Assembly (NCBI GenBank): GCA_951406725.2
Contig: OX597824.1
Location: 67,642,001 to 67,706,000 of the forward strand
DNA length: 64,000 bases
DNA from: Octopus vulgaris
Taxonomy: Eukaryota
Direction of reading: 5' to 3'
Positions within the stretch are counted from its first letter, which is position 1. Each line of letters starts with the position of its first letter. The translations under genes were made by a program, and so were the position numbers. Positions 56,401-59,400 of the stretch are shown piece by piece. Under the pieces are notes generated by a model. The model was given only the letters and a program-made list of their open reading frames with translations. It had not been told where the DNA came from and did not search any database.

Positions 56401-59400
56401 GCCGTTGGTGCTGCAGTGATTTCTATTCTATTTTTGCCAAGTTCTTGGTAGAACTTTTTGGGGTTGGAGTTGAACTGTTTGTTTTGTTCAAAGAAGCGCT
56501 GGCGTTTCTCGTACCGGCGGATCCTTTGTGCTTTGGCAAGGATATCTTGCTTCAGTTTTTCTTTTATCTCAGGTAAATCTTTTTCTGTTATGTTATATTT
56601 GCGGAGTATTTTTGTTTTCTTTTTGTTGCTCAGTAGCGTTGATTGTCTACTGATTTCATTAAGAATCGACAGATCTTTTCTCATTTTTTGTATTTTGTTT
56701 TGGATGTTATTTATCCACAGGGTTTGTTTGGGTGGTGGTACTCCTGTTTGGATGGGTTTGAGTGAGTATCCAGCTTCTTTTGTGGCTGCAGTGGCTGCAC
56801 TAAGTCATTTAGCTCAGTGATATTGCTTATTATTATTATTATTATTATTATTATTATTATTGGTTTTCAGGTCACTGCTTGGAATCGAACTCGGAAACTT
56901 GGGCTTAGTAGCCTGCGCTCTTAACCACTACGCCCACGGGCACATGGCGTAGTGGTTAAGAGCGCGGGCTACTAACCCCAAGATTCCAAGTTCGATTCCA
57001 GGCAGTGACCTGAATATTAATAACAACAACAACAACAACAACAACAACAACAACAACAACAACAACAACAATAATAATAATAATAATAATAATAATAATA
57101 ACAACACCGAAAAATGCGTTAGGAATGAGAACCCAGATTCGAAATTTCCCCAAGACACCTGATGAAGGCTGCTGGGTATAACAGCCGAAACGTTGTGTTA
57201 ACAACAAACAAGATGAGGACAAATATCAGTCGAATTTAAATAATGTAAATAATGTAAATAATGTCTCGAATTATACTTTTAAACTTTAAGTTTTCTCCCA
57301 TCGTTTTTAAGGGCGTAGTGCAAAAAGAAAATGGACAAAATCGGTACTGAGTGGGGGAGGGATTGAAAAATTCGTAAATTTTGAAAAATTTTCTCCTCTT
57401 TTTTATTTCACCAAAAGGCGTTTCCCATTGATTTTAAGTGCGTAGTGCAAAAGAAAGAAAAAAGGACAATGTCGGTTCCGACGAAGAAGGGTGGGTTAAT
57501 TCTTATATCAAAAAAACCTTTGTCATAAAAAGTTTTCCCCCAATATTTTTAAAGGTGTGTCAAAAAATATTTGAAAAATTCCCCTCAAAATGAAGAAAAT
57601 CCAAATTATGTGGGGTGTGCTCTCCCGAAAGTTCGCCAACCAAGGCATTCTGTTGTGAAAATTGCCCGGCGATGACGGGATACGCACCCAGCACGCGTGT
57701 GTGTTTGTGTGTGTGTGTTTCCATTTGTGTGTGTGTATGTGTGTGTGTATGTGTGTGTGTGTGTGTGTGTGTGTGTGTGTGTGTGTGTGTGTGTGTGTGT
57801 GTGTGTGTGTCTGTGCGCGCGTGAATGTGTATATATGTTCCTATATATACACTGGCGAAAATAAATTTAAGATCGATGATAAAATTTCTATTTCTTACAA
57901 TATATTTTGTTACTAACAAATTATTTTTATCTTTTACACCTTATGCAGAATTTATTTTTCTTTCGAATGATGCAGACAATAACTATTTTTATATAACTTG
58001 AAAAATTCTAATGCTAAATTAATATAAATTTTCAAATTTACCAGCAAAATTAGTTTAAGGCAATGTAATATGTATGCAAATTTTTTTTGCCGAAATGGGT
58101 GGTCACACAACTAACCTAAATGCACTATATAGAGTTATAATTTAACGTTATTATACAATTGATTAATAACGGGAAAACAACGTAACCTCAGTCCAGTCAC
58201 GAGAGCAAAAATCGTATTACTCCACCAGCAAAAAGTTTCCTTTCCGAACATCAGCAAGCAACTAAAGTGTAGTAAAACGGCTTGCGTGCAAGTGTAGACG
58301 TTATACTCGGAGACTGGTCAATATAAAGGACTGGTGCCCAAAGAAATACGACGGCGCAGTTGGACCGTCGAATCCACCGACTTTCAGAAGGCAATCGAAT
58401 GCTTACAGCCGTTGACATTTGTAAATAATTGTCCAACGAGAACGGTGTTATTTTTTCACCACAAACCTTCCGCAACCGTTTGAGAGAATTTGGACTACAT
58501 GGACGAATCGCTGGGAAAAAAAGCCAATAATATCCGAAAGAAATCGACTCAAACGCCTTAATTTAGCAAAAAGCCATGCTCAATGGACTGCCAAAGTTTG
58601 GTACATGGTCCTTTGGAGTGATGAGTCACTCTTCTGTATATTTGGATCAGATGGTAAAACATACGTCAGACGTCACCCAAACGAGGAATTCCATTCGAAA
58701 TGTGGGAAAAAGACGGCGCAAGCGGGGGGTGGGGGCGTGAGGGTGTGGGCGGAATTTAGTAGCTTTGGTGTTGGCCCTCTAGTTAAAGTTGATGGAAAGC
58801 TGTGCCATATTTGACTCACCAAATGCCTCCGGGGGCTATTTATCAGCAGGACAATACTCCTGTGCACAAAGCCAAAAAGGTTATGGAATTTTTTGATCAC
58901 CATAATATTGACGTAATTAAATGGATTCCCCATGGTCCGGACCTGAATCCGATCGAGAACTTGTGGAATTATGTTTCAAAAAAAGTCTATGCTAAAAAAG
59001 CCATCTAATATAAAGCAATTATTCGATTATATCAATGAAATATGCTAAACATTCCCATAGAATTTTGTAATCACTTAGCGAATTCAATGCCGAGGCGTTG
59101 TTCAGCCATTATTAAGAATAAAGGCTATGGCACAAAGTACTAATATGTATTTTGTTGTTGTTGCTCATTTTTGCTGCAATCTTGAGCTTTAAATAGAATT
59201 ATAATGAGACGGTCTTTGACTAACTTTGCCGGTAAATTTGAAACGTTTATTTTAATTTAGTATTCATTAGAATTCTTCATGTTGTATGAAAATAGTTATT
59301 GTCTGCATCATTCGAAAGAGAAATAAATTCTGCATAAGGTGTAAAAGATAGAAATAATTTGTATGGTGTTATTAACAAAATATTTTGTAAGATATAGAAC

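Follow-up and report, generated by a model that had tools for sequence, protein, structure and literature searches.

Penelope-like elements (PLEs) of the Penelope/Poseidon type, such as PAc of the anole, have in common with the octopus family described here an ORF that joins a reverse transcriptase (RT) to a GIY-YIG endonuclease at the C-terminus (PMC11167929, PMC8557442, PMC4209133). As described in the portions of these papers available to us, they also share with it two 3' ends, an optional tail of 30-40 nt and inverted as well as partial-tandem insertions. Inverted Penelope pairs with a tail on one side are likewise described there (PMC8557442, PMC11167929), and the hammerhead of anole PAc overlaps the ORF start (PMC11167929) as it does in octopus. 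The octopus family differs from PAc in that its terminal repeat (pLTR) opens with a tRNA-like head carrying A and B boxes and followed by a microsatellite, with the 5' ends of copies piled up there; the same portions mention nothing of the kind for PLEs. The tRNA-Arg-like head is the unusual part of the locus, inverted arms and a one-sided tail being known Penelope traits.

Among known systems, schistosome Sm-alpha and Cassandra/Helenus come nearest to this arrangement. According to the available parts of the respective reports, Sm-alpha and Sj-alpha likewise combine a tRNA-related Pol III promoter with a hammerhead behind it, in tens of thousands of copies, but they are non-coding, their canonical hammerhead frees monomers from tandem transcripts, and no coding element that shares their head is described (PMC6765202, PMC2770079). 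The TRIMp3 elements Cassandra, Helenus and Ajax hold a small-RNA-derived Pol III promoter inside the terminal repeat, for the capture of which the part of the source at hand proposes a SINE insertion; they are, however, non-autonomous LTR elements of <1.3 kb, whereas the repeat studied here belongs to a coding Penelope-class element (PMC10886601). Animal non-LTR retrozymes are comparable as non-autonomous, hammerhead-bearing derivatives of PLE pLTRs, but are defined as tandem arrays in the accessible part of their description, and tRNA, Pol III and octopus do not occur in that text (bioRxiv 10.64898/2026.07.22.740005).

No description of a tRNA-headed pLTR was found in the literature; the repeat databases Repbase, Dfam and SINEBase lay outside this search and may hold an entry. 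Octopus does have tRNA-derived repeats, the SINEs OR1, OR2 and OK, which Ohshima and Okada reportedly described in 1994 and of which OR1 and OR2 are said to be of tRNA-Arg origin. The part of the source consulted places OR2 among the CORE SINEs (PMC4758252), whereas in the unit studied here the microsatellite follows the head too closely for a central domain to fit in between. Hammerhead and Pol III are absent from the text of an octopus repeat annotation, and hammerhead is absent from its one supplement (PMC13282606), while the available parts of PMC8967140, PMC6962438 and PMC4758252 hold nothing on a tRNA-headed unit.

Structure of the locus

The window is a stretch of 64,000 nt from Octopus vulgaris (contig OX597824.1, positions 67,642,001 to 67,706,000), and a repeat search of its whole length was dominated by microsatellites. 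Positions within the element are counted from +1 at 56938, the first nucleotide of the head, so that the leader from -5 to 0 covers 56932..56937. The features of the locus are as follows:

53790..56822 (bounds approximate), minus strand: decayed non-LTR element following the (AAT)n of the inverted arm, which we take from its motifs to be R4/Dong-like (ORFs; RVT_1 E 1e-21)
56827..56861, minus strand: (AAT)n of the inverted arm
56868..56934, minus strand: inverted second arm, 5'-truncated, head +9..+75, 95.5% to the family
56932..57262, plus strand: plus copy overall, a repeat-only (pLTR) copy
56932..56937, plus strand: 5' leader, positions -5 to 0; the G at 56932 is a recurrent family 5' end
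56938..57012, plus strand: tRNA-Arg-like head (from sequence and alignment to the genome's own tRNAs)
56945-56955, plus strand: A box of the head, by sequence reading
56989-56999, plus strand: B box of the head, by sequence reading
57013..57103, plus strand: (AAC)n(AAT)n microsatellite, of varying length between copies and a target of R4/Dong-like insertion
57022-57071, plus strand: (AAC)n part
57070-57101, plus strand: (AAT)n part
57104..57124, plus strand: 5' UTR of the Penelope ORF, 21 nt
57125..57262, plus strand: start of the Penelope ORF, ~46 codons with the ATG at 57125, ending in the 9-nt repeat
57154..57199, plus strand: minimal type-I hammerhead over the ORF start (from sequence, fold and the features in the available part of PMC4209133)
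57154-57158/57195-57199, plus strand: stem I
57159-57165, plus strand: core, followed by one extra A
57167-57171/57182-57186, plus strand: stem II
57187-57190, plus strand: GAAA, followed by a palindromic 2-bp stem III
after 57194, plus strand: predicted cut, at GUU, by sequence reading
57233-57264, plus strand: 9-nt repeat within the ORF, the proximal one of two family 3' ends

Head, microsatellite, hammerhead, repeat and inverted head were each found where the first-pass annotation had placed them, but several of its parts have another meaning. The 11-nt gap that it saw between the two heads is element sequence, the plus copy beginning at 56932. Its 45 unique nucleotides are the 5' UTR and the start of the ORF, and the 9-nt repeat that it took for the tail of the element sits inside the ORF, the genuine tail of 30-40 nt being absent from the window copy. 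In the window copy, codon 19 of the ORF is a stop. The leader bases make a 4-bp palindrome with +1..+4, and the 5' end of the plus copy is at -5 or at -2, owing to a 3-nt overlap with the inverted arm.

The body of the left (inverted) arm is missing from the window, the arm being interrupted by the R4/Dong-like element. At two other loci (L341, L342) an R4/Dong-like element also lies in the microsatellite, and the body of the unit resumes right after the insert. The element in the window is for this reason most likely a nested insertion, one that probably came later and is not part of the unit.

The composite as terminal repeat of a coding Penelope family

The genome searched is microsatellite-rich and comprises 2.8 Gb in 227 contigs. 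A 19-mer from the hammerhead had 7,556 exact matches in it, versus 0 for the reversed control, so that the composite is not a product of chance. At 24/30 loci picked by the head and at 25/30 picked by a head motif, the body lay downstream on the same strand. The composite is thus a real high-copy unit, as had been supposed, and this co-occurrence rules out a chance nesting of head and hammerhead. Stand-alone heads accounted for 6/30 and 5/30 of these loci, respectively, and two of them proved on inspection to be units split by an R4/Dong-like insert. The sampled copies (99) are dispersed as singles, inverted pairs and a few short partial tandems, with no arrays among them. In genome annotation, such copies, many thousands in number, could end up labelled as SINEs or tRNA pseudogenes.

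One locus picked by the body adjoined a Penelope-type RT fragment. Among 40 loci picked by the RT, 27 carried the head on the same strand ~930 nt (900-950) downstream of the RT match, and the body was likewise present at 27. On examination, the 13 RT loci that lacked a sense head turned out to belong to this family as well, in truncated or deleted form, and no headless sister family was found among them. Only 29 nt separate the stop codon of the RT and GIY-YIG ORF from the head start, and the body was carried at 28/30 loci picked by a motif of the intervening spacer. Since the reading frame of the body leads on into the N-terminus conserved among Penelope proteins (the body's alignment with an 847-aa homologue starts at residue 11, E 1e-34), the stretch from microsatellite to tail represents a 5' UTR and the first codons.

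According to our analysis, one period of the family consists of a short spacer, the tRNA-Arg-like head, (AAT/AAC)n, a 21-nt UTR and an ORF of 838 codons, the first of which overlap the hammerhead. This ORF is the majority reading across copies; no intact full-length copy was found among those examined, and the longest ORF in a single copy has 569 aa (L061; RVT_1 E 2.7e-6, which falls slightly short of the curated threshold). A GIY-YIG domain following the RT was read from motifs, and the Pfam GIY-YIG model was matched by two homologues of the family protein. The linker between RT and endonuclease (EN) has three isolated cysteines and no CxxC before the EN motif, hence no extra Zn-finger, in contrast to Neptune/Nematis PLEs, which have one in this linker. 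Its ORF domains and pLTR traits would place the family among the EN+ Penelope/Poseidon elements.

As the first-pass annotation had supposed, the unit carries Penelope insertion signatures; those observed here are inverted and partial-tandem insertions and the one-sided tail of 30-40 nt. Among 99 copies picked by a hammerhead motif on contig C1, the 3' ends fall into two groups, at body 138-160 and 181-186, and in inverted pairs, as a rule, just one of the two arms bears the tail. We are nearly certain that head, microsatellite, hammerhead and repeat tail together form the pLTR of a coding Penelope/Poseidon-type family. The unit is the pLTR of the coding element itself and its body is the N-terminus of the family ORF; the idea of a separate SINE or retrozyme is most likely wrong.

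The upstream ORF fragments of partial tandems (L311-L340, L345-L384) repeatedly stop close to 250-260 and 410-420 in family coordinates, and the starts of many pieces lie near body 138-145; these positions may be further sites of priming or template switching. The family spacer (L065:2700-2730) looks like an inverted, decayed version of the first 20 nt of the head, a likeness that hints at a capture of the head through a fold-back junction like those in short copies.

Short copies and the autonomous partner

The first-pass annotation regarded the unit as a non-autonomous element with a Pol III promoter of its own, mobilised in trans. On such a reading the short copies would be an independent tRNA-derived SINE with its own master copies and a borrowed Penelope 3' end. 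Head-start copies do exceed ORF-attached copies about 5:1, an RT lies upstream on the same strand in only 1/30 loci picked by the head, and inserted short copies retain A and B boxes and could act as sources. However, the head belongs to the coding element as a constant component, as the loci picked by the RT and by the spacer motif demonstrate. No clear diagnostic sites were found between 97 short and 36 ORF-attached units, the divergence of which is alike (5.5% vs 6.1%). The join of ORF and head also occurs in contigs of four related organisms, and none of the best-supported joints listed for these organisms leads from the ORF end to the body while skipping the whole head. We therefore consider an independent SINE improbable.

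The short copies work like a SINE, with a 5' end fixed at the head, and yet fail independence from their partner: the head is present in the autonomous element, and among the units compared the short copies do not stand out as a lineage of their own. They must use the Penelope RT/GIY-YIG in trans, a point on which the first-pass annotation was right. The family illustrates one way for SINE-like elements to originate from their autonomous partner and extends the theme of Cassandra and Helenus to the Penelope class.

The hammerhead does not bound the unit

Both the tRNA-like head and the hammerhead were identified by direct reading and by alignment to the genome's own tRNAs, as the Rfam search that had been suggested matched neither a hammerhead nor a tRNA at E<=1 in the window; Rfam matches resembling miRNA hairpins scored below the gathering score and were discarded as an effect of the inverted repeat. 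When compared with the features of minimal hammerheads in the available part of PMC4209133, the motif has the core boxes, the extra nucleotide between 9 and 10.1, the pair G10.1-C11.1 and the palindromic 15.2-16.2. Covariation in stems I and II, which had been proposed as a test, was absent among about 160 copies. The only recurrent non-CpG changes in the hammerhead were N7 T>A (23/157) and one G>A in a loop (23/160), and its divergence of 0.103 vs 0.089/0.091 in the flanks shows no excess conservation.

In a non-LTR retrozyme, cleavage by the hammerhead would define the unit RNA, which would be circularised and copied by rolling circle. An intact minimal hammerhead in the family fits this picture, as do the somewhat more numerous 5' ends downstream of the cut (59 in body 86-125 vs 15 in 56-85), but there is no sharp peak at the predicted cut itself, and the 3' ends lie 50-95 nt beyond it. 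The predicted cut does not define the ends of the unit. The lack of arrays and of covariation also argues against a retrozyme, and in anole PAc, according to the part of the report at hand, hammerhead mutants were without effect on insertion in vitro (PMC11167929). We thus give the retrozyme explanation very little credence.

A recurrent 5' end in front of the head

Of 9 tRNAs of the genome tested, the head aligned best to tRNA-Arg TCT and TCG (z 8.1); ARAGORN called no tRNA in the window. Genome-wide, exact 19-mer counts were 12,234 and 7,556 for the body and 5,491 for the head, but 1,060 for the stop/spacer and 859 a further ~170 nt in, corresponding to a 5.2-fold fall across the head start. 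Among copies that reach +9, 32/43 end within -16..+9, a density of ~0.03 5' ends per nt vs ~0.002 in the ORF, where paired arms are not independent of each other in either figure. The non-inverted copies have 7/15 of their ends at -7..+3 (-7, -6, -3, -2, +1, +1 and +3), and five copies end exactly at +1, where they form a second group of ends.

Junctions were sampled in 70 copies containing the junction from tail to ORF (ORF-start copies). Five non-inverted partial-tandem junctions fall at exactly -5 and one at -4, although two of the five have their junction in common and could stem from a single event. The joining G (-5) lies 13 nt upstream of the A box. Eleven of the 70 copies reach an upstream sense head and 11/11 begin in or at it, a count that, taken alone, fits a strong stop as well as it fits a start site. 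In a mixed sample of 83 heads that reach -5, the proportions of which are not genome-wide, 39 carry on into the spacer and 14 fold back, while the remaining 30 lead into other sequence, in 16 cases after a short match to fold-back or spacer sequence. The template RNA of the family probably has its recurrent 5' end at G-5 (56932), likely the transcription start. This putative start site can be read from thousands of copies, and it coincides with a tRNA-type promoter.

Likely transcription by Pol III

Since the pLTR opens with a tRNA-derived segment at which most copies begin, the element is likely read by Pol III. The majority unit of 2,642 nt has no TTTT on its sense strand, compared with a mean of 3.3 after synonymous shuffling (P=0.018), and R4/Dong-like controls are not depleted (observed/expected 3/2.7, 3/1.8 and 1/0.6); this is a modest test, with one family and one control family. 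Judged from these sequence features, Pol III initiation inside the pLTR is somewhat more probable than its absence, while it is possible but doubtful that Pol III also makes the complete coding RNA. The Pol III promoter that the first-pass annotation assigned to the unit is accordingly plausible from the A and B boxes, the pile-up of 5' ends and the missing T4 runs, but it would not be that of a separate element.

A structural stop or tRNA-like processing also has to be weighed, because of the palindrome at the -5 end and the five ends at +1. The head could be a passenger in the same Penelope pLTR, the RNA being made by Pol II from a pLTR further upstream or from a promoter of the host, and the pile-up could come from an RT stalled at the palindrome (-5..+4) or from an RNase P-like cut at +1. 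In line with this, 14 junctions fold back, and the A box is no more conserved among genomic copies (5.2%) than the rest of the head (4.8%), the value for the B box being 3.3%. RNA-seq of a related organism (three runs) gave equal depth on both strands with 64-68% of reads continuing into unrelated sequence, which looks mostly like host read-through. On the other hand, the pile-up is also present in non-inverted copies, tandem junctions fall at exactly -5, an RT would be expected to stall at the stem's 3' foot, and the missing T4 runs would go unexplained. On balance, we regard a passenger head as unlikely, though less so than an independent SINE.

Proposed mechanism

We lean, with reservations, towards a scenario in which the window holds a pLTR-only copy, likely copied by the RT/GIY-YIG of the family from a likely Pol III RNA that starts just before the head. 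The A and B boxes would direct Pol III to initiate at G-5. By analogy with anole PAc, the family protein would nick AT-rich DNA and prime reverse transcription inside the ORF start. The cDNA would then run off the RNA 5' end at -5 and fold back or switch template, giving rise to inverted and tandem pairs. Short RNAs would yield SINE-like copies such as that in the window, and long RNAs the ORF-bearing copies, while Pol II read-through could supply RNA for translation of the protein. Given run-off copying from the start at -5, the short copies would act like SINEs but derive from the autonomous element's own promoter. The R4/Dong-like element would likely have inserted later, into the microsatellite of the left arm.

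More speculatively, an autonomous coding retrotransposon may have captured a tRNA promoter and purged its Pol III terminators, so that Pol III would make, from one start, both a genomic RNA of 3 kb and SINE-like short RNAs in abundance; a SINE would then have been born inside its partner element. We hold this to be conceivable rather than probable. Should Pol III indeed read the ORF from end to end, the family would represent a coding retrotransposon driven by Pol III, and the translation of an uncapped RNA would call for an explanation. To our knowledge, the transcription of PLEs and their need for tandem repeats are still poorly understood.

Neighbourhood of the locus

Exon-like stretches at 7123-7821 and 33410-34177, both on the minus strand, bear what we take to be a resemblance to SLC22/MFS transporters, which suggests that the pLTR copy lies in or near an SLC22/MFS-like gene on the minus strand. 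Just downstream of the pLTR copy, 58251-58975 is presumably a Tc1/mariner-like transposase fragment (DDE-type motif), and a frame of 200 aa at 46841-47443 on the plus strand appears to us to resemble a MULE-type transposase fragment.

A second decayed R4/Dong-like copy lies at 34750-35569 on the plus strand and is 96-98% alike over ~700 nt to that at 53790-56822 on the minus strand; both copies in the window adjoin (AAT)n, and a long (GAA)n expansion lies inside the R4/Dong-like ORF at 54701-54859. The block 22001-26000 is G+C-rich (47-51% vs ~33%) and contains a two-copy tandem repeat of 100 nt at 25293-25496. At another locus in the genome (L136:138-2854), seven genes or pseudogenes of the tRNA-Cys type are clustered within 3 kb.
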